Sequence record: AP019559
Origin: Escherichia phage SP15
Direction: 5' to 3' (one strand)
DNA: 64,000 nt
Shown: positions 10,128-59,890 of the stretch, piece by piece
Numbering within the stretch: the first letter of the stretch is position 1
How the letters are laid out: every line of letters starts with the position of its first letter
Notes under the pieces: generated by a model
The model's input: only the letters and a program-made list of their open reading frames with translations
The model's database searches: none
Told to the model about the DNA's origin: nothing
Position numbers and translations under genes: made by a program

Positions 10128-10556
10128 ATGTTCAATAATGTGTTCTCTAAAGAAGCTAACCCAATATTAGTTAATTTTTGGCGTACTCTTCCAGCCAACC
10201 TGTACAATGAGGCTATTAATGCTCTGAAAATATGGTGTGAGAATAATGAAATCTCCTTTGCTTTTAAAGGCGAGGTTGAAGAGGCTCCCTGTATTGGTTT
10301 AATTGTGCAGGTGGAGGATGGTCTTGAAGAGATTGTCGGCTGGAAAGAGTTGGATGAAATGGGCTTGGTTTTTGCGTTAAACTATAAGCTGTTTATGCCC
10401 AATAAACACCGTATTGTTGTTAACTATAAAACCAATGAATCTCCTGGTTTTCAAGTTAATGAACGGTATGGTTGGTCTTACTCACCGGAAGAGGTAAATG
10501 ATGGTATCCAGAAACTTCGTCGTTTTGGTTATCAAATTCCGGGTTTAACTGCCTAA
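10128..10556 (+). CDS. Hypothetical protein (tandem paralog 1)
   Basis: 142 aa; shares PCIG, MGL(V/I)xALN, xIPGL with the next ORF. Confidence 0.5.
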   Translation: MFNNVFSKEANPILVNFWRTLPANLYNEAINALKIWCENNEISFAFKGEVEEAPCIGLIVQVEDGLEEIVGWKELDEMGLVFALNYKLFMPNKHRIVVNYKTNESPGFQVNERYGWSYSPEEVNDGIQKLRRFGYQIPGLTA

Positions 10557-10565
10557 GGAGGCACA

Positions 10566-10958
10566 ATGGAACAAGTATATTGGCGTCAGATCGACCCTAG
10601 TTTGGTGAAGCGTGCAGAGAAGCTGCTACAACGTTGGTTGGGGGTAAGACAAGCCTCCTTCACTTTTCCGGAGCAGCAAATAGACGATCCCTGTATTGGT
10701 GTTTTCCTATCAGGCTACGCTAGGGAATGGGAATTGGATTGGAATGAATTGTCTGCTATGGGTTTAATTGTTGCACTAAATTTCTCTTTGTTCCATCCAC
10801 GTGGTTTGGCCATATGTCGTGTGCCTGAGGACGGTTGTTCGCCCCATCTTTTACAGGTGGAAGATGATATTTGGGAGTACACTCCAGATATTCTCAAAGA
10901 AGCCAAAGAACAATTAAACCGTGTTGGAATTTATATTCCAGGCCTGAATGATGAATGA
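10566..10958 (+). CDS. Hypothetical protein (tandem paralog 2)
   Basis: 130 aa; paralog of 10128-10556; strong RBS TAAGGAGG. Confidence 0.5.
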   Translation: MEQVYWRQIDPSLVKRAEKLLQRWLGVRQASFTFPEQQIDDPCIGVFLSGYAREWELDWNELSAMGLIVALNFSLFHPRGLAICRVPEDGCSPHLLQVEDDIWEYTPDILKEAKEQLNRVGIYIPGLNDE

Positions 10959-11097
10959 TTTTTATTGGTTGACCTCTATAATCCGGGCTATTAGTGCTCG
11001 GATTATTGCCTAATCTTTCCAGCTAATTGACAGCATGAATAAATTGTCATTGACAAATTGAATAGATTATGTAATAATATGTGTATTGGAGGTAAAG

Positions 11098-11550
11098 ATG
11101 TCGCTCACACAACAAGAACTTTTAGATAATTTCCGATATGAAGATGGAAAATTATTTAGAACCACAGGAAGAAATGCAGGCAAGGAATGTTGTGTTTCAA
11201 CGGGAAATGGGTATTATCGTATTTCTCTAGGTAGTAAAACTATGCTCCGACACAGAGCCATCTTCTTAATGCATCATGGTTATCTCCCTGATTTAGTAGA
11301 TCATGAGAATACTATAAAAGGTGATGATCGTATTGAAAATCTTAGAGAGCAGACAGTATCCGGTAATCTAAGAAATATCAAATATAAGAAAGGAATGCAT
11401 GTTTACCCTTCTGGTAGTAAGAACTGGCAAGTAGTATTTACTATTAACCGTAAACGTATAGTTAAAGGAACATATGACAACTATGAGGTTGCATGTTCTA
11501 TGGCCAAGATGTTTAGAGGTCAATTATACGGTAGGGAATCAATCCAGTAA
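11098..11550 (+). CDS. HNH homing endonuclease (HNH_3 type)
   Basis: Motif LVDHENTIKGDDRIENLRE; start at ATG preceded by GGAGG; free-standing in an intergenic position. Confidence 0.7.
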   Translation: MSLTQQELLDNFRYEDGKLFRTTGRNAGKECCVSTGNGYYRISLGSKTMLRHRAIFLMHHGYLPDLVDHENTIKGDDRIENLREQTVSGNLRNIKYKKGMHVYPSGSKNWQVVFTINRKRIVKGTYDNYEVACSMAKMFRGQLYGRESIQ

Positions 11551-11618
11551 AATTTCATTTGCAAGGGAGTATTATTTTATAGTATAATATTCCCATAAAT
11601 GAGAGATATTAGTAAAAA

Positions 11619-11648
11619 TTGATTTTGCTAATTTTTCTTGTTTACAAT
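11619..11648 (+). promoter_or_regulatory. Candidate sigma70 promoter (TTGATT, 18 nt, TACAAT)
   Basis: Lies upstream of the long GC-rich leader preceding the helicase gene. Confidence 0.35.
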
Positions 11649-12085
11649 CCGCGATACGGAACAGTTAGGCTGCCCCATTAAGGGTTGTTTTAACTGTTAC
11701 GTGTTAGTTTTTAAGCAAATAATTAATAGAATACTTAGCGATCTGCGTCCCGTAGGAACCCTGGTAAGGCCTCGAAGCAACCTAGATAGAGGTGGTTGTG
11801 AAGTGAGACGGGAGGAGTGAAAAACTCCGAGACGTGATTCTGTAAGTTATATTGCATCTAGTATGAGCTAGTATATGAAGCATTAGGTGAGCAAATCTGG
11901 CTTAGCGGCCATCCTCAAGGATTTGTGCGGTATAGCAAAGCAGCAGCGCAGCGTGAAAGTGGAAGTTGCCACCCCACTTCAGTATTTGCGATTAATTTGT
12001 TGAGAAATTGACAGTAACAGTTGTTCTATTCTTTCTGAATAGTCCTAAAGAAAACTTATTTCATTTCCAACACAGGAGTATTGTT

Positions 12086-14875
12086 GTGTTTTCAATCCTA
12101 CAAGGTCATGCAGGATTTCATCGCGATTTAGCCACAGGCAATTGGCGAGAAGTTAAGGCAGAAGATTATCTTTTTGCTAAAAGATTTTCCTCAAAGCATC
12201 CCGAAGGTAAACCAGCTTCAATGCCCTTCAAGTTTGATGTAATTGATGAAGTTGATCCTCAAACCCTAGTAGAAATGCTTCCTCTTATGAGACGTTTAAC
12301 GTCTGACCCTCATATCGTTGCGGTACGAGGTCGATGTCTTGCACCTAAAAATAATGTGCGACGTAAGAAGGGCAACTTTAATGTATCTAATCCAAGTCAT
12401 ATAATCGCAATGGATGTGGATGGTATTGTAGATACAGGAGGTTGTAACAAGTTTGATCTTGTTGGCATGGCGCGTCATATTATTAGGATGTTGAATAGTA
12501 TTAGTGAGGATATGTTTCCTCTTGATGCAGGGTTTATTGCTCATGCATCATCTTCGGCTGGCCTAAAACCAGGTATCCGAATGCACTTAATACTAGAATC
12601 TAATGTTAAAGTTACACAGGGTCAGATCAAGTTCTTATTTACATCTATCAACGAAAGTAGTAGACAAAAGTATGGCTTTGATATTGCCGACTTAGCTTAT
12701 TACTCTTCCGTACAGCTCCACTATTTTGCAGATCCTTTATTTACTGATGGTATAGTTGATCCGTTTAAAGCGGAGGGTGCTTCACGTCTGGTATTTGTTA
12801 AAGGCTCAAAAGTAAATTTACCTAATAATCTAGTTGACTATGAAACAACTAGAGGAGAGTTTAAAGAGGAATTCTACTCTTTACTCGATCAAATTAAAGG
12901 TAAAAAAGCCGCCTCCGATAAAGTAGAGGAAACTATCAGCGAACTAGAAGAAGCTGAGGATGGAGTGTATCTACGTATTATTCCTAAACTCTATCACAGG
13001 GCTTTAGAGGATGGTGTTGATTTTGCATGGCTAGAAAAAGAAATCCGCCCAGCCTTATCAGAGTATATTGCAACTAAAGATAATAGTCGTAATATTCAAG
13101 ATTATTTTAACAACGGTAGAAAACAGGCTCTGAAAGCGTTTGTTAATAATTCTAAACGTGATATACCGGATGTTTTAAAAGGTATTCCACTTAAAAAGCT
13201 AGAAACTAACTCTCTAGAGACTGATAACTTCTTGAAATTAAATACTGTACCACCAGAAGGTTATATGACTTTTGTAAAAGCAAGTCTAGGTACAGGTAAA
13301 ACTACGGCGGTTGTGCGTTGGTTAGATTCAGGAGTTATTAAGGGTAATTTCTTAGCAATTACCAATACTCGAGCACTGGTATCTTCAAATGCTAAGAAAT
13401 TTAGTGCAGGACAATATGATAAGTCTGTAGATATGCTTAATTTTAAGCGTGGCGCTATTGACCGTATGTCCACAACTATACATTCTTTGCATAAGTTCAA
13501 GAGTTTTATTGGTCAAATCGATGCAATCTTTATCGATGAATGTGACGCTGTAATGAATGACCTATTATTCGCCCCGGTTGTTAAACAACGTCGTGAATGT
13601 ATTCAGGTTCTTCGGGATATTCTTGCAACTGCAAAAATCATTATATTATCTGATGGTGATATTAGTGCTGAAACAATTGAAGCATATGGTTCTTTGATTG
13701 AGTTTGATAAACCGGTTGCATTTTATAATCATCACCGTAAGATGCTGTCAAAAGCTCATGCTTATGAGTTCCCTGATGAATCTAGTATTTGGGTTGCACT
13801 TCAGACCTCTCTAGAGATGGGTGAGAAATCTATTCTGGTATCTGATTGTGGGCCGGATGAGCTGAATGAGAAAGGTATGGCACTGCGTCGTAATACGGGT
13901 GCGTTAGTTAAGGAAATCCATTCAAACTCTACCTCAGATGTGGATATTAGACGTATTCTGGATTACACAACTAATGAACTAATTGATCAACAAATTGATT
14001 GTTTATTATGTAGTCCATCCGTAACGAGTGGTGTTGACTTTAACTATTTTGATAACGTATTTGTTATTACTAGAACTAGTAATCAAGCGCCAAACATGCG
14101 TTTCCAAGCAATCAGGCGCGACCGTGGTGCTCAGAATATCTATTATTTTATTGATAAATCCACTAGTGGATTCTCCGCAGGTTCTGAACAATATAATATT
14201 GATGAGGGTTGGCTGGAGTTAGCACAGCAATTATACGCACGTCGCAGGGAGCTGGAATCTAGGAACTATACTAGTACTTTACGTTATTACTTACTTGATC
14301 AGGGTGCAACTATTGATATTTTCAGTGAAAGCTGGGGAACTATTGAAGGTGCTGGTAAAGAGTATACAGAAGAGCGAATCAAAGCTATTCTGCACTCAAC
14401 TCCTGATTATTGTGCTCCACGTCATGCGGATGCGTATGAAGCTAAACTACTTCTTGTTCGCTATTATCATCTGGAGTCTATTAAAGATGTAACCGTTGAG
14501 CATGTTGAACAATATATCAAAGATAAGCCGAATGATCGAGCTGCATTCTTCCATAAGATGCATGAGATGTTCTGGGAAGATATTAAGAAGTGTTCAAATG
14601 TCACTATCAAACCTTTCATAGAAGCTCTGAAAGGTAAGAAGAAAGATTTCTTCCTTAAAACAGGTCAGAGTGCTAACCCAAAATATGCTAGAATGTATCT
14701 TGGTATGATGGGTATTGGTAAAGATATGAACACGGAGAATATCGTAGACTGGTACAGAACCTATTGTAAAATCGAGTGTATGCCAATTCCTTTCAAATTC
14801 ATGACAGAGGAAGAACGTCAGATGCACGAGGAAGCAATGTCAGAGCTAGGTGCTAGAAATGACAGTGAAGAATAA
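12086..14875 (+). CDS. Large P-loop NTPase / SF2-type helicase, putative replication initiation (origin-binding) helicase
   Basis: Walker A SLGTGKTT, Walker B FIDECDAV; start placed at GTG preceded by AGGAG (ORF track extends to 12008). Confidence 0.65.
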   Translation: MFSILQGHAGFHRDLATGNWREVKAEDYLFAKRFSSKHPEGKPASMPFKFDVIDEVDPQTLVEMLPLMRRLTSDPHIVAVRGRCLAPKNNVRRKKGNFNVSNPSHIIAMDVDGIVDTGGCNKFDLVGMARHIIRMLNSISEDMFPLDAGFIAHASSSAGLKPGIRMHLILESNVKVTQGQIKFLFTSINESSRQKYGFDIADLAYYSSVQLHYFADPLFTDGIVDPFKAEGASRLVFVKGSKVNLPNNLVDYETTRGEFKEEFYSLLDQIKGKKAASDKVEETISELEEAEDGVYLRIIPKLYHRALEDGVDFAWLEKEIRPALSEYIATKDNSRNIQDYFNNGRKQALKAFVNNSKRDIPDVLKGIPLKKLETNSLETDNFLKLNTVPPEGYMTFVKASLGTGKTTAVVRWLDSGVIKGNFLAITNTRALVSSNAKKFSAGQYDKSVDMLNFKRGAIDRMSTTIHSLHKFKSFIGQIDAIFIDECDAVMNDLLFAPVVKQRRECIQVLRDILATAKIIILSDGDISAETIEAYGSLIEFDKPVAFYNHHRKMLSKAHAYEFPDESSIWVALQTSLEMGEKSILVSDCGPDELNEKGMALRRNTGALVKEIHSNSTSDVDIRRILDYTTNELIDQQIDCLLCSPSVTSGVDFNYFDNVFVITRTSNQAPNMRFQAIRRDRGAQNIYYFIDKSTSGFSAGSEQYNIDEGWLELAQQLYARRRELESRNYTSTLRYYLLDQGATIDIFSESWGTIEGAGKEYTEERIKAILHSTPDYCAPRHADAYEAKLLLVRYYHLESIKDVTVEHVEQYIKDKPNDRAAFFHKMHEMFWEDIKKCSNVTIKPFIEALKGKKKDFFLKTGQSANPKYARMYLGMMGIGKDMNTENIVDWYRTYCKIECMPIPFKFMTEEERQMHEEAMSELGARNDSEE

Positions 14876-15092
14876 AAAATGGGAAACAAGGAAGTTTCCA
14901 GTAAAAGAACGCAAAGTTCCTGTTTATGATACTTCGGAGAAGCTATGTAGGGTGGTACCGCATAGATTAGCTGGTATCCCTAACATATCCGAGTGGTTAC
15001 TTAAACAACGGAGGACTAACGTATCTCTTCGCGTAGGGTTTGAGTTAGATAAAGTATATGCTGAACTTTCTTCTTTGCTCAAAGAATCATAA
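14859..15092 (+). CDS. Hypothetical small basic protein
   Basis: ORF overlapping helicase stop; weak RBS. Confidence 0.25.
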   Translation: MTVKNKKWETRKFPVKERKVPVYDTSEKLCRVVPHRLAGIPNISEWLLKQRRTNVSLRVGFELDKVYAELSSLLKES

Positions 15093-18820: not shown

Positions 18821-18850
18821 ATTTATATAAATTGATAAGGAAGAAATTTG

Positions 18851-19630
18851 ATGAAAATCGAAATTCCAACACAATGTCCCTCTTGTGGTTCTAAGCTCGA
18901 TCTTGTCAACGGACAATTATTCTGTCGTAATAAGTCCAACTGTCCAGCACAATCAAGTAAGTTAATTGAGAACTTCTGTACAAAAATGAAGTTAAAGGGT
19001 TTTGGCCCAAAAACTATTGAGAAGCTGGAGCTGACGAAGATTTCAGAACTATTTTACCTAACCGAAGAAGATTTGGTTAGAGCCGTGGGTAGCAAGGTTG
19101 CCGCTAAGTTAATTAGCGAATTAAATACTAAAGTTCGCGGAGACATTGACTTTGGTTCAGTTCTCGGTTCTTTAGGAATCCCTCTAATTGGAGAGGTTGC
19201 AGCAAAGAAATTATCCCAAAATTGCACTAGCTTCCACGATGTGAAGGCTGACGGCAAGGCTGGAGAAAACTATAAAGCCTGGCTAAATTCCACACAAGGC
19301 AAGGATGTTATCGAATTACCGTGGAAATTCACAACTGGTATTAAAGGTGCTAAAGCCGAGGTCATCATTACTGATGGTCTAGTAGCCCAACCAAATGGAA
19401 TAACGGTATGTATTACCGGATCTTTGCAAGATTTTGCAAATAGAACGGATGCAACAAACTATCTAGAAGGTCTAGGGTATACTGTTAAAAAATCAGTTAC
19501 CAAAGACGTTAAATACCTAATCTGTGAGGATGAATCTAAGCGTTCTTCCTCATCTTATAAGAAAGCCGAAACGAATGGGATAGAAATCCTGTCGATTAAA
19601 GAACTATTGGAGAAAAATAATAATGTCTAA
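18851..19630 (+). CDS. ligA: NAD-dependent DNA ligase, C-terminal part (zinc finger, HhH, BRCT-like)
   Basis: N-terminal Cys cluster CPSCGS...CRNKSNCP, then GFGPKTIEKLEL helix-hairpin-helix. Confidence 0.7.
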   Translation: MKIEIPTQCPSCGSKLDLVNGQLFCRNKSNCPAQSSKLIENFCTKMKLKGFGPKTIEKLELTKISELFYLTEEDLVRAVGSKVAAKLISELNTKVRGDIDFGSVLGSLGIPLIGEVAAKKLSQNCTSFHDVKADGKAGENYKAWLNSTQGKDVIELPWKFTTGIKGAKAEVIITDGLVAQPNGITVCITGSLQDFANRTDATNYLEGLGYTVKKSVTKDVKYLICEDESKRSSSSYKKAETNGIEILSIKELLEKNNNV

Positions 19631-20390
19631 ACTGAACTGGAACGTAGAGGGTGTAACCGAGTCTCTGAAAGCAAAAGCCACTGCTCTGGGTGTTGATGTA
19701 ATCTCTCAAGAACAAGTAGCTGCTATCGCTGCTGAACTGGCTGCTGAAACTGGCAAAGACGTTACCGCTCGCTCTGTTGGCTCTAAGCTGCGTAAAGAAG
19801 GTTTCGAAGTACAGAAAGCTAACGAAGTACAGAAATCCCCGTGGACTCCTGAGCAGGAAGCTGAACTGGTTGATTTCCTGAACGCTCATGCTGGTCAGTA
19901 TACTTATGCTGAAATCGCTGCTGCTGTAGCTGGTGGTCAGTTCGGTGCTAAACAGGTACAGGGTAAGATCCTGAGTCTGGAAATGACCGCTTCTGTTAAA
20001 CCAACTGAAAAAGCTGCTGCTGTTCGTTCCTTCACCCCTGATGAAGAAACTGATTTTGTTAACCAGGTTGTTGCTGGTGCTACTATTGAAGCTATCGCTG
20101 CTCACTTCGGTCGCAATATTAAGCAGATCCGTGGTAAAGCTCTGAGTCTGCTTCGTGAAGGTCGTATCGCCGCTATGCCGGTACAGGAAACTTCAAGTGC
20201 TAAAACTCGTGAAGATCTGTTAGAAGGTCTGGATCTGGCTAACATGACCGTTGCTGAGATTGCTGAGAAAACTGGTAAGTCTGAGCGTGGTGTTAAATCT
20301 ATGCTGTCTCGTCGTGGTCTGGTTGCTAAGGACTATGATGGTGCCGCTAAGCGTGCTAAACTGGATGCAAAAGCTGCGGCTGCTGAATAA
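19623..20390 (+). CDS. Four-repeat HTH (sigma70 region 4-like / HeH-like) DNA-binding protein, Ala-rich, host-optimal codon usage; possibly the abundant early DNA-binding protein (T5 D5-like)
   Basis: Four ~45-aa repeats each ending in an xIAxxxGxxxxxVxxxxSKLR-like helix-turn-helix; CTG/GCT/CGT/GGT codon bias unlike neighbours. Confidence 0.6.
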   Translation: MSKLNWNVEGVTESLKAKATALGVDVISQEQVAAIAAELAAETGKDVTARSVGSKLRKEGFEVQKANEVQKSPWTPEQEAELVDFLNAHAGQYTYAEIAAAVAGGQFGAKQVQGKILSLEMTASVKPTEKAAAVRSFTPDEETDFVNQVVAGATIEAIAAHFGRNIKQIRGKALSLLREGRIAAMPVQETSSAKTREDLLEGLDLANMTVAEIAEKTGKSERGVKSMLSRRGLVAKDYDGAAKRAKLDAKAAAAE

Positions 20391-58573: not shown

Positions 58574-59890
58574 TTATTTACCACGGGAAATAGAGTAAAT
58601 TCCATAGCGGAGCGCATCACAAAGGTGAGAGTTAGCATCATGACGTGGTTTTTCACGCGATAATTTCTCTTCGCCTTCTTGGAAGTCCCACTTATAGTTC
58701 TGCAATGCATGAATTAAGGAGGAACATGAGGCATCTACAATAATCTTGCCCTGCTGGAATAGCGCTTGCAAGCATGCTAGACCATCTAGGACAGATTTTT
58801 TAGCTGGAGCCGATGCAATTTCATGCTCATAAGCTAAGTCTTGACGGAACTGAGCTGCCGCGGAGTCAACAAAAATACGATCAACTTTATAACGATCTAT
58901 ACAGTGCTGAATATAAGCAGCATGCTGAGCTGTAGTTTTCTCCGCCTGCTGGTACTCTTCTAACACATAGTAAGTATCCGTATCGTAATGATATTTAATA
59001 GTAAGAACTGCTGTAGGATCACGATAACCAACGTCAATACCAAGCAACGTTTCGAATGCTTCATCATCTTTAAAGAAGTGACGCATACCTTTGAGATCTT
59101 TAACATGATCTATAGCATTGAAAGTATCAAATATCTGCCCTTCGAATACAGAGAAGTCAGCCTCGTATTCTTGGCGGAAATAGTTTTTACTAACTGTACG
59201 ACGTGCTTCCTCAATATCATTCAAATCAGCACGTGGGTTATCACGATATGTACCATGAATAGACACCCAGTTAGGTAATGTATCATCAAATCCATAGGCG
59301 TAAAACTCTTTAAACCAGTTACCCCCACGAGGGGTGGAAATAAATAGAGCCTTAGAATTAGGTTTATCTAGAGTAGGACGCAGCTGAACCCTGAAGGCAT
59401 CACCACCCACATCGGAAATTGCCGCCTCGTCAAAGATGATAAAATCATATGAACGTCCAACTGCGGAGTCAGCCTGAGCCGCGGAAGCTAGTTTAAATAG
59501 GGAACCGTTTGCCAGCTCAATCTCTTTATCTTTAGCATTCTCACGTTCTGTTTGCAACCCATACTTCTTAATAAGACCACGAATCTGAGACCATCCGATA
59601 TTAGCCAGTGAGTAGTTAGGGGCGACTACTAGTACCTTCACATTGGGTTCCAGCAATTTTAGGAACCCAAGTGTATACGCTATAAAAGATTTACCTACAC
59701 GGCGTGATACACACGCCGTTACAAAACGATGTCTAGGGTCTTCTAGGGCATTGATAATTGCTATTTGAGGGCCATTAGGTGTAATACCCTCTTGTGCTAG
59801 TATTCCGGAAACAGGTAAACGAAAGAAACGCTTATCTATTCCGAAATCAATAACATCTACTGTATTAACGTAGGGTCTTGATACTTCCAT
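58574..59890 (-). CDS. Terminase large subunit
   Basis: 438 aa; ATPase Walker A-like RVGKSF, Walker B IIFDEAA, C-terminal nuclease domain. Confidence 0.85.
   Translation of the reverse strand: MEVSRPYVNTVDVIDFGIDKRFFRLPVSGILAQEGITPNGPQIAIINALEDPRHRFVTACVSRRVGKSFIAYTLGFLKLLEPNVKVLVVAPNYSLANIGWSQIRGLIKKYGLQTERENAKDKEIELANGSLFKLASAAQADSAVGRSYDFIIFDEAAISDVGGDAFRVQLRPTLDKPNSKALFISTPRGGNWFKEFYAYGFDDTLPNWVSIHGTYRDNPRADLNDIEEARRTVSKNYFRQEYEADFSVFEGQIFDTFNAIDHVKDLKGMRHFFKDDEAFETLLGIDVGYRDPTAVLTIKYHYDTDTYYVLEEYQQAEKTTAQHAAYIQHCIDRYKVDRIFVDSAAAQFRQDLAYEHEIASAPAKKSVLDGLACLQALFQQGKIIVDASCSSLIHALQNYKWDFQEGEEKLSREKPRHDANSHLCDALRYGIYSISRGK

Follow-up and report, generated by a model that had tools for sequence, protein, structure and literature searches.

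The genome of Escherichia phage SP15 (accession no. AP019559) was analyzed over a stretch of 64,000 nucleotides (nt), here called the window, to which all positions below refer. This study deals with the interval at 11551-12085, which directly precedes the gene of the D2 helicase (GTG start at 12086) and which an initial annotation, made from the sequence alone, had described as an unusually long, hairpin-rich, non-coding leader. Judged by comparison among related phages, the interval is not a spacer. It encodes a predicted RNA of about 450 nt (~11595-12045), which has a defined fold and constitutes the 5' leader of the D2 mRNA. The RNA is not annotated in the T5 reference records and has no match in Rfam 15. 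We consider it very probable that a conserved, structured + strand RNA is physically linked to D2. Its action in cis on D2 expression is proposed with less assurance, at slightly below even weight, and the full explanation, that is, the structure together with a cis mechanism on the D2 message, stands about evenly between right and wrong.

The fold comprises about 143 base pairs (bp) on the + strand between 11596 and 12042, and every pair was verified in the window sequence. The energy of the curated fold was -114.8 kcal/mol, or -135.6 kcal/mol with extra local pairs, and the unconstrained minimum free energy (MFE) was -140.7 kcal/mol. The 5' end consists of P0, a 21-bp A/U-rich hairpin (11596-11644; UAAAUGAGAGA.AUUAGUAAAA paired with UUUUGCUAAU.UUUCUUGUUUA), and of PA, a stem-loop (11653-11679; GAU/AUU, GG/CC, and CAG/CUG) that holds the conserved sequence AUACGGAACAGUUAGGCUGCCCCA. 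The 5' and 3' parts are then joined by four long-range helices, P1 (11691-11724 with 11990-12023), P1b (11729-11735 with 11981-11987), P2b (11738-11740 with 11952-11954), and P2 (CUGCGU/GCGCAG; 11743-11748 with 11946-11951). Together they add up to some 45 bp of irregular helix, by which a 209-nt core is closed. Within this stalk, 21 bp, interrupted by one bulge, come from P1a and P1a2, and P1c, P1b, P2b, and P2 extend them.

The core domain (11743-11951) is organized around a four-way junction of P2, P3, P4, and P5. The P3 domain (11749-11753 with 11808-11812) carries P3a, P3c, and P3b. P4 is the hairpin GGAGU/ACUCC (11814-11828), and the joining strand J4/5, GAGA(A/C)GUG, runs between P4 and P5. 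P5a and P5b (11840-11856 with 11926-11943) open into a three-way junction of P5b, P7 (11857-11862 with 11882-11887), and P6 (11892-11897 with 11920-11925). The P6 loop contains a mini-hairpin, P6a (GGCU-UAGC-GGCC; 11899-11910), with the invariant octamer CUUAGCGG at 11901-11908; this loop is a candidate recognition site. Outside the core lie the hairpin P8 (11957-11979; loop AAGUUGCCACC) and a terminal hairpin (CUAUUC/GAAUAG; 12026-12042). The terminal hairpin is not a terminator, because no U-run follows it, and the D2 ribosome-binding site lies 31 nt farther downstream.

Two of the three hairpins listed in the initial annotation, GGAGT/ACTCC and AAGTGG/CCACTT, correspond to P4 and P8 and are conserved with compensation. 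The third, AACAGTTA/TAACTGTT, exists in the window (11660-11699) but is not conserved. Its 3' arm is conserved instead as the 5' strand of a long-range helix with 12014-12023: in AKFV33, Eps7, and Stitch, TAACTGTT is changed to TAACTATT, and the compensation occurs at 12017-12019 (GTAATAGTT) and not in the AACAGTTA arm. The two copies of CTAGTAT reported as direct repeats are present (11859-65 and 11869-75) but are not conserved and are at chance level.

The interval was aligned from the window, T5, Eps7, Stitch, AKFV33, Pantoea phage AAS21, and Klebsiella, Pectobacterium, and Providencia phages. A global MAFFT alignment of all clades with RNAalifold was too poor and was replaced by anchored segments, clade-wise alignments, and a covariance model. 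Invariant islands were found at ~11668 (GGC..C..CA), ~11740 (GAUCUG), 11900 (GCUUAGCGGC), and ~11945 (AGCGCAGC), and the stretches between them vary freely in sequence while their length is constant. The unit comprises P0 through the terminal hairpin, with its limits set 75 nt before the first island and 150 nt beyond the octamer; it measured 461-472 nt in all 40 distinct sequences, with a core of 201-215 nt. The 5' half of the core (window 11749-11840; 1664-1760 in L027, the T5 locus) occurs in two versions that cannot be aligned with each other, and both are found even within Tequintavirus. Class I includes the window type (BB1 and close relatives), AAS21, DU_PP_V, My1, and the Klebsiella type; class II includes T5, AKFV33, Eps7, Stitch, and the Providencia type. 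Between the Tequintavirus members of the two classes, P0, PA, P1, and the terminal hairpin hardly differ.

Pairing in the core was evaluated over 55 pairs in 12 class-I sequences (window-type variants, AAS21, DU_PP_V, and My1) aligned with MAFFT. The proportion of alignment cells able to pair was 94.2%, as against 35-45% when the 3' partners were slid by 1-3 columns. Changes on both sides were seen in 33 of the 55 pairs, as against 6-12 with slid partners. None of 500 column shuffles reached the observed value in any of five measures; such shuffles ignore phylogeny, for which the slid-partner controls do correct. About eight independent lineages underlie the covariation. P2 is an example, with at least six versions, among them CUGCGU/GCGCAG, CUACAU/GUGUAG, CUGUGU/GCACAG, CUGCAU/GUGCAG, CUAGAAU/GUUCUAG, and CUACAC/GUGUAG, all of which pair. 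The closing pair of P6a also covaries, from G-C to A-U in AAS21 and My1 and to G·U in L018, and P8 shows a UA to GC compensation in four sequences. A blind RNAalifold run on the window-type sequences and AAS21 returned 138 pairs, 22 of them compensatory, and recovered a P0-like hairpin, PA, P1, P2, P3, P3b, P3c, P4, P5, P8, and the terminal hairpin.

The same analysis of the T5- and Eps7-type sequences gave 64 pairs, of which five were compensatory and none was broken. The first 100 nt of the class-II core are almost invariant between T5 and Eps7. In this core, 17 columns vary, 13 of them lie in predicted pairs, and all 13 still pair; five pairs, located in P2, P5b, P7, and P6, are changed on both sides. 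Because class II keeps the pairing of P2, P5b, P7, P6, and P6a, the three-way junction and P6a are common to both classes.

For the outer helices, 33 distinct sequences were compared. Pairing was possible in 83% of the cells, as against 35-50% with slid partners, and 48 of the 83 pairs were changed on both sides. P0 was 83-86% paired, with 10 pairs changed on both sides, and the terminal hairpin was 91% paired, with changes on both sides in five of its six pairs. PA, which has the invariant columns GGC..C..CA, was 95-98% paired. Its compensations are CAG/CUG to CGG/CCG in AAS21, GG/CC to AG/CU in the Klebsiella type and AAS21, and GCAU/AUGC to GUAU/AUAC within the Klebsiella type. In the nine clade representatives compared, which differ in sequence here, the energies of the P1 duplex ranged from -27 to -40 kcal/mol, as against -15 to -26 kcal/mol with shuffled partners (z -2.3 to -7.0), and in eight of the nine none of 100 shuffles reached the observed value. 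The initial annotation had proposed compensatory base changes among related phages as a check, and these were found in both the core and the outer helices.

The pairing is not symmetrical between the strands. The outer helices contain 378 G·U cells as against 48 A·C cells, and the P1 duplexes are weaker by 5-24 kcal/mol on the complementary strand. Since G·U cells far outnumber A·C cells and folding of the complementary strand is weaker, the structure belongs to the + (D2-sense) strand, and this specificity points to an RNA and not to a cruciform. Overall folding was also better on the + strand than on the - strand, by about 20-30 kcal/mol.

Two further contacts were noted as leads only. A possible pseudoknot between GGCUGC of PA and GCGGCC of P6a fits six of eight clades and fails in the Providencia type. 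A possible loop-loop contact between CCACC of P8 (11970-11975) and GGUGG in the P3b loop/stem (11791-11795) fits four of five class-I clades, with the counterparts CUGCC/GGUAG in AAS21, CCAC/GUGG in the Klebsiella type, and CACC/GGUG in DU_PP_V; My1 does not fit.

The window belongs to a T5-like phage (Demerecviridae, Tequintavirus), and over 11400-12200 it shares 99.5% identity with Escherichia phage BB1. The flagged interval was conserved in 444 phage records, and D2 homologues were found in 904. The RNA is conserved across Tequintavirus, Epseptimavirus, and the T5-like phages of Klebsiella, Pectobacterium, Pantoea, and Providencia. The octamer CUUAGCGG was present at every locus retrieved through helicase protein homology, down to 57% identity, and lay 223-232 nt after the first island wherever both occurred. 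A covariance model of the core, R1, recovered all class-I members at E<=1e-33 and the Klebsiella type partly (E~1e-5); it gave no match in the Vibrio, Aeromonas, or Providencia loci, nor in L070, a locus with one CUUAGCGG loop hairpin ~410 nt upstream of D2. Pattern scans returned ~32 true matches in IMG/VR, on T5-like contigs only (with 27 G+C-rich false positives), eight true matches in metagenomes, all of known types, and only six chance matches in bacterial genomes. In Vibrio phage JSF10 (L075, 828-1928), ~1.1 kb is unannotated before the D2 homologue. The corresponding stretch of Aeromonas phage vB_AdhS_TS3 (L078, 219-1808) is ~1.6 kb long, is likewise unannotated, has no open reading frame (ORF) of at least 60 amino acids (aa), and contains two hairpins with CUUAGCGG loops, at 698 and 942. 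These features suggest a related RNA of still greater size.

The 3' part of the P6 loop (~11909-11919 or its equivalent) drew separate attention. It reads AUCCUCAAG in the window, CCUCCUUA in DU_PP_V (L068, ~1330-1340), and UCUCCUUAG in My1 (L069, ~1338-1348), and the remaining clades differ again. We take CCUCCUUA and UCUCCUUAG to be identical to the 3' tail of 16S rRNA (anti-Shine-Dalgarno). Likenesses of this kind, namely CCGUAGG and CCUCCUUA to 16S rRNA and UAGGCUGC and GGCUUA.CGG to RNase P RNA, were considered and then rejected, as they are at chance level for 7-9-mers and are not conserved. The motif GCTTAGCGGC occurs elsewhere on the - strand as one exact copy (20343-20352) and two one-mismatch copies (19100-19109 and 20169-20178), antisense inside the + strand ORFs 18848-19630 and 19623-20390. 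With four matches as against 2.0 expected, the extra copies are probably chance.

A sigma-70 promoter-like site, TTGCAA-18-TATAAT, is located on the + strand at 11559-11588, in agreement with the promoter that had been placed at the 5' end of the interval. A T5 promoter is annotated at the homologous position, and the site is labelled as a T5-consensus promoter in the AKFV33 record. The transcript of the leader and D2 probably starts from this promoter, near 11595, which would give a leader of ~490 nt from the promoter to the GTG at 12086. In the T5 reference, a terminator after T5.107 is followed by a promoter (58999-59073, NC_005859), ~470 nt without annotation, and D2; the order of terminator, TTGCAA-N17-TATAAT promoter, leader, and D2 is common to T5, a Klebsiella phage, and Pectobacterium phage DU_PP_V. 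No terminator-like site was found on the + strand between the RNA and D2 in the window, the Klebsiella phage, or DU_PP_V. From 11648 to D2, no further promoter-like site was found in the window, so the D2 mRNA must carry the structure unless it is processed. The RNA thus lies between promoter and start codon, on the same strand, with no terminator and with covarying helices, as a cis-acting leader would. Because it always precedes D2, co-oriented and with no terminator between them, in every lineage, its function is probably tied to D2. Of the structured regulatory leader suggested in the initial annotation, the covarying + strand structure and the uninterrupted course from promoter to D2 are borne out; the regulatory role is our proposal.

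P0 calls for separate comment. A weaker promoter-like site (11619-11648) overlaps it, its 3' side is U-rich, and it is annotated as a terminator in phage Stitch and is terminator-like in AAS21; P0 may act as an attenuator. In L014, L038, and L029, the promoter region and the 5' half of P0 (~11560-11633) are swapped for an unrelated ORF-free sequence of ~270 nt (their ~1282-1550), with the junction exactly at TTTTTCTTGTTTACAAT and the remaining RNA intact. P0 is not essential to the unit, because it is half-deleted in these phages.

The D2 coding sequence runs from the GTG at 12086 to 14875 on the + strand, with an AGGAG ribosome-binding site at 12074-12078, 7 bases before the GTG. Its product is the homologue of T5.108/T5p106, a UL9-like SF2 helicase. 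Homologues are labelled 'replication origin binding protein' or 'DEAD/DEAH helicase' in databases, and residues 394-533 match Pfam Herpes_ori_bp. Biochemical characterization of D2 showed a bipolar helicase of the SF2 type with kinship to UL9 of herpesvirus (PMC3632103). The N-terminal ~390 residues (12086-13270, residues 1-395) had no Pfam or PDB sequence match and gave only two partial matches against a database of 5.8 billion proteins. This domain is the part of D2 that might recognize the RNA or the origin. A single-sequence AlphaFold model of it had a predicted local distance difference test score (pLDDT) of 34, too low for fold-based inference on RNA binding. Residues 1-305 of D2 group by RNA class, which may reflect simple linkage.

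In the mechanism that we propose, the transcript from the early promoter would fold so that its 5' and 3' parts form the long helix of P1, P1b, P2b, and P2 and present the core. The invariant CUUAGCGG loop and the joining strands would then serve as a binding platform, for which D2 or another phage or host protein is a candidate factor. Binding of the factor, cleavage of the long helix, or both would govern how stable the D2 message is or how it is translated, and the amount of the initiator helicase could in this way be coupled to the state of infection. RNase III processes such duplexes in rRNA precursors and phage early mRNAs. The stalk is a plausible substrate of this type, with at least ~20 bp of mostly Watson-Crick flank duplex. 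Among known leaders, those of T-boxes, cobalamin and lysine riboswitches, glmS, and ribosomal proteins are likewise co-oriented 5' untranslated regions with a P1-closed multi-junction core, invariant joining strands, and covarying helices. Unlike them, the D2 leader has no Rfam match and no terminator or Shine-Dalgarno-sequestering platform that could be found, and its gene encodes a replication helicase. Its ~45-bp P1 stalk is too stable for a switch helix of the riboswitch kind, and the whole is two to three times larger. The DEAD-box helicases DbpA and YxiN, which recognize hairpin 92 of 23S rRNA specifically, offer a possible analogy, in that an SF2 helicase with extra domains could be paired with an invariant small hairpin, the CUUAGCGG loop of P6a, on a larger RNA. 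The analogy is one of concept alone; the activity characterized for D2 is that of a DNA helicase (PMC3632103).

Several observations weigh against this explanation. No expression platform was found, that is, neither a terminator-like site after the core nor a conserved pairing of the Shine-Dalgarno sequence. Sequestration of the D2 Shine-Dalgarno was checked by hand over the clade sequences, and the candidate pairing segments differed between clades; the sole alternative pairing in the window, 11656-67 with 11691-702, does not covary. The size and complexity of the predicted RNA far exceed those of known protein-binding translational operators. Single-sequence MFE z-scores were modest (-0.1 to -4.7) and were not used as support. 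In the most divergent clades (Klebsiella, Providencia, and the class-II 5' half), the helices were partly assigned by eye. R1 matched class II only at the P6 hairpin and left the 5' half of the T5 and Eps7 cores unaligned, and two deeply different core 5' halves therefore exist. In the literature searched, no description of this RNA or of T5 transcripts from the region was found. Because an expression platform was not found and the size is excessive for an operator, the possibilities of a released RNA and of an origin or primer RNA were kept.

The leader might also be regarded as a member of an unrecognized class of large folded RNA specific to Demerecviridae, working with D2, for example as RNA partner or loading platform of the initiation machinery, or as a released ribonucleoprotein (RNP) or a catalytic RNA. 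We treat this possibility as doubtful, although of some weight. If it were true, the RNA would be more than a passive leader, and the class I and class II cores, which co-segregate with the D2 N-terminus, would be specificity types. Very few RNAs of more than 300 nt with many conserved junctions are found in bacteria and phages, and those that are understood are ribozymes, RNP scaffolds, or major regulators. ROOL, GOLLD, OLE, and HEARO resemble the D2 leader in exceeding 300 nt, in having many junctions, in being often carried by phages, and in the type of comparative evidence. The D2 leader differs from them in that it has no family match, is fixed before one gene, and is restricted to Demerecviridae. 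ROOL and GOLLD are located near tRNA genes. The families searched for included group I and group II introns, RNase P, tmRNA, 6S, ROOL, GOLLD, HEARO, and riboswitches. Rfam 15 cmscan with permissive filters over 10500-13000 (E<=10) gave only chance matches of 13-23 bits to miRNA and sRNA models, and an Rfam search of eight loci from eight clades (E<=1) gave nothing inside the leader. With ARAGORN, neither a tRNA nor a tmRNA was detected in the window. The anti-retron factor 'Rad' of T5 was considered and set aside, being a protein unrelated to this RNA.

Somewhat less probable, in our estimate, is a stable RNA of ~300-330 nt released by cleavage of the P1 stalk and acting in trans, for instance as the RNA subunit of an RNP that includes D2 or a different replication protein, or as a host-factor decoy. 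The small RNA suggested in the initial annotation would be conceivable only in such a form, as a processing product of ~330-400 nt. An irregular duplex of this length around a compact, multi-junction core of constant size would suit such a product, and invariant loops and junction strands are typical of RNP or tertiary-contact sites. The complexity lies above that of operators and in the range of large ornate RNAs, the missing expression platform fits, and the ORF-free stretch of the Aeromonas phage carries two CUUAGCGG modules. The RNase III stems of pre-16S and pre-23S rRNA are comparable, with a long imperfect duplex, its strands here ~330 nt apart, enclosing a structured RNA. The leader sites of T7 and lambda are comparable in this respect and also belong to phage early transcripts made by host RNA polymerase. 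The rRNA stalks enclose rRNA, whereas the D2 leader has a non-rRNA core directly before an ORF and its cleavage is a proposal. At the T7 and lambda sites, the hairpins are local and 20-30 bp long, whereas the present stem closes a 209-nt core. The strict linkage and co-orientation with D2 in every lineage, without a terminator, speak against a released RNA, and RNase III sites are not reliably predictable from sequence.

An origin or primer RNA, in which the structured transcript would form a persistent RNA-DNA hybrid or a loading site from which D2 starts replication, is rather improbable. The leader lies directly upstream of a UL9-like initiator helicase, has a strong conserved promoter, and occupies ~59.1-59.5 kb of the 121.75-kb T5 genome, near its middle, where we presume the primary T5 origin to lie. 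The transcripts of ColE1 RNA II, the T4 oriF/oriG R-loops, and T7 phi1.1A/B are also promoter-driven and folded, several hundred nt long, and close to initiation functions; the primary origin of T7 is promoter-dependent. In the D2 leader, unlike ColE1 RNA II and the other origin transcripts, there is no antisense regulator and no evident hybrid-forming tract, and no conserved antisense promoter was found at the locus in the window, the Klebsiella phage, AAS21, or DU_PP_V. Electron microscopy indicated multiple internal T5 origins (Bourguignon 1976, to the extent cited in PMC3632103). The co-segregation of D2 N-terminal sequences with RNA class would be in favor of this model, but linkage explains it equally well. 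The suggestion of a replication origin in the initial annotation found no DNA-level support: there were no iterons or direct-repeat arrays, an A+T-rich unwinding element was lacking outside the promoter and P0 region, the GC-skew inflections of the window fall at ~6 kb and ~34 kb and not at the leader, and the interval is conserved in the manner of RNA helices that include G·U pairs.

A structure at the DNA level, either a cruciform or a folded single strand serving as an initiation signal or as a site for the origin-binding protein, is very improbable. Conserved complementarity would suit DNA hairpins as well, and a displaced + strand could fold. However, cruciforms and structures of the minus strand are ruled out by the strand asymmetry described above. 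Helices rich in G·T and interrupted by many internal loops would be weak in DNA, and no single-strand initiation signal is known to have a multi-junction core and a 45-bp helix that spans 330 nt.

Even less credence is given to one or two small proteins. On the + strand, the longest ORFs have 60 aa (11638-11820, TTG start) and 38 aa (11887-12003). Two short ORFs are called 'hypothetical protein' in PMBT29, Stokescottia, and other annotations, and T5 and AAS21 have an ORF of 38-39 aa in a comparable position. Against coding, a stop codon interrupts the 60-aa frame in relatives with 95-98% identity (L008, L011, L014, and L038), and substitutions relative to AAS21 are spread evenly over codon positions in the two ORFs (25/18/20 and 16/17/19). 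Moreover, 1-2 nt indels separate the clades, the longest ORFs sit at different places in each clade, neither ORF has a Pfam match, and the substitutions are paired across helices. Taken on these comparisons, the interval is non-coding and the two ORFs are not genes. This agrees with the lack of a convincing ORF in the initial annotation, which had named a conserved short protein-coding gene as the finding that would overturn its view; such a gene was looked for and was not found. The higher G+C content was also seen. It was 0.42-0.455 over 11700-11999, as against 0.325-0.33 in the 5' flank and 0.355-0.40 downstream, and 0.49 in the 209-nt core as against ~0.39 for the window. The rise is modest, and some nearby coding stretches reach 0.475.

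The least plausible explanation is the degenerate group I/II intron or other mobile remnant, such as a miniature inverted-repeat transposable element, that was linked to the HNH endonuclease gene: this gene adjoins the leader and the P1 strands resemble inverted repeats, but the gene is absent from ~95% of the phages that carry the RNA, no intron model of Rfam matched at E<=10, the element is single-copy at one fixed intergenic locus between T5.107 (or the HNH gene) and D2, the P1 arms diverge between clades yet stay complementary, which is the opposite of transposon ends, and no copies were found in the bacterial genomes or other phages scanned. The covariance-model scan proposed in this connection, against Rfam and group I models, returned no family.

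The HNH gene (11098-11550, where the ORF ends) matches Pfam HNH_3. The query 11400-12200, which included the 3' end of this gene, matched 443 phage records, of which only 21 aligned across the gene. Because the remaining records align from 11583 onward, the flagged interval is present in more than 400 phages without the HNH gene. From this distribution, the gene is a rare upstream insertion unrelated to the predicted RNA.

Other features of the neighborhood were recorded. A near-consensus promoter-like site, TTGACA-17-AATAAT with a TG, precedes the HNH gene at 11050-11078. The 25 nt after the HNH stop (11552-11576) form a direct repeat (76%) with the 25 nt immediately before the D2 ribosome-binding site (12058-12082), which may be a trace of the acquisition of the HNH cassette. 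The ORF at 14850-15092 overlaps the 3' end of D2, and the BB1 gene from ~14859 is annotated as an HNH endonuclease (P-TflIX-like). If this annotation carries over, homing-endonuclease genes would flank the D2 locus on both sides. Farther upstream, 10128-10556 and 10566-10958 are homologues of T5.106 and T5.107. Their translations have sequence blocks in common, and they appear to be tandem paralogues. Of the two products, that of 10566-10958 was scanned against Pfam and matched DUF7415.

The annotation of many T5-like genomes, including some phage-therapy candidates, can now be corrected with respect to spurious 'hypothetical proteins', and a seed alignment and a model are supplied for a new RNA family. 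The candidate RNA is located in a classical and tractable model phage, directly before the gene to which the initiation of T5 replication is attributed. Should the RNA control D2 or act as its partner, it would offer a concrete handle on the control of T5 replication.

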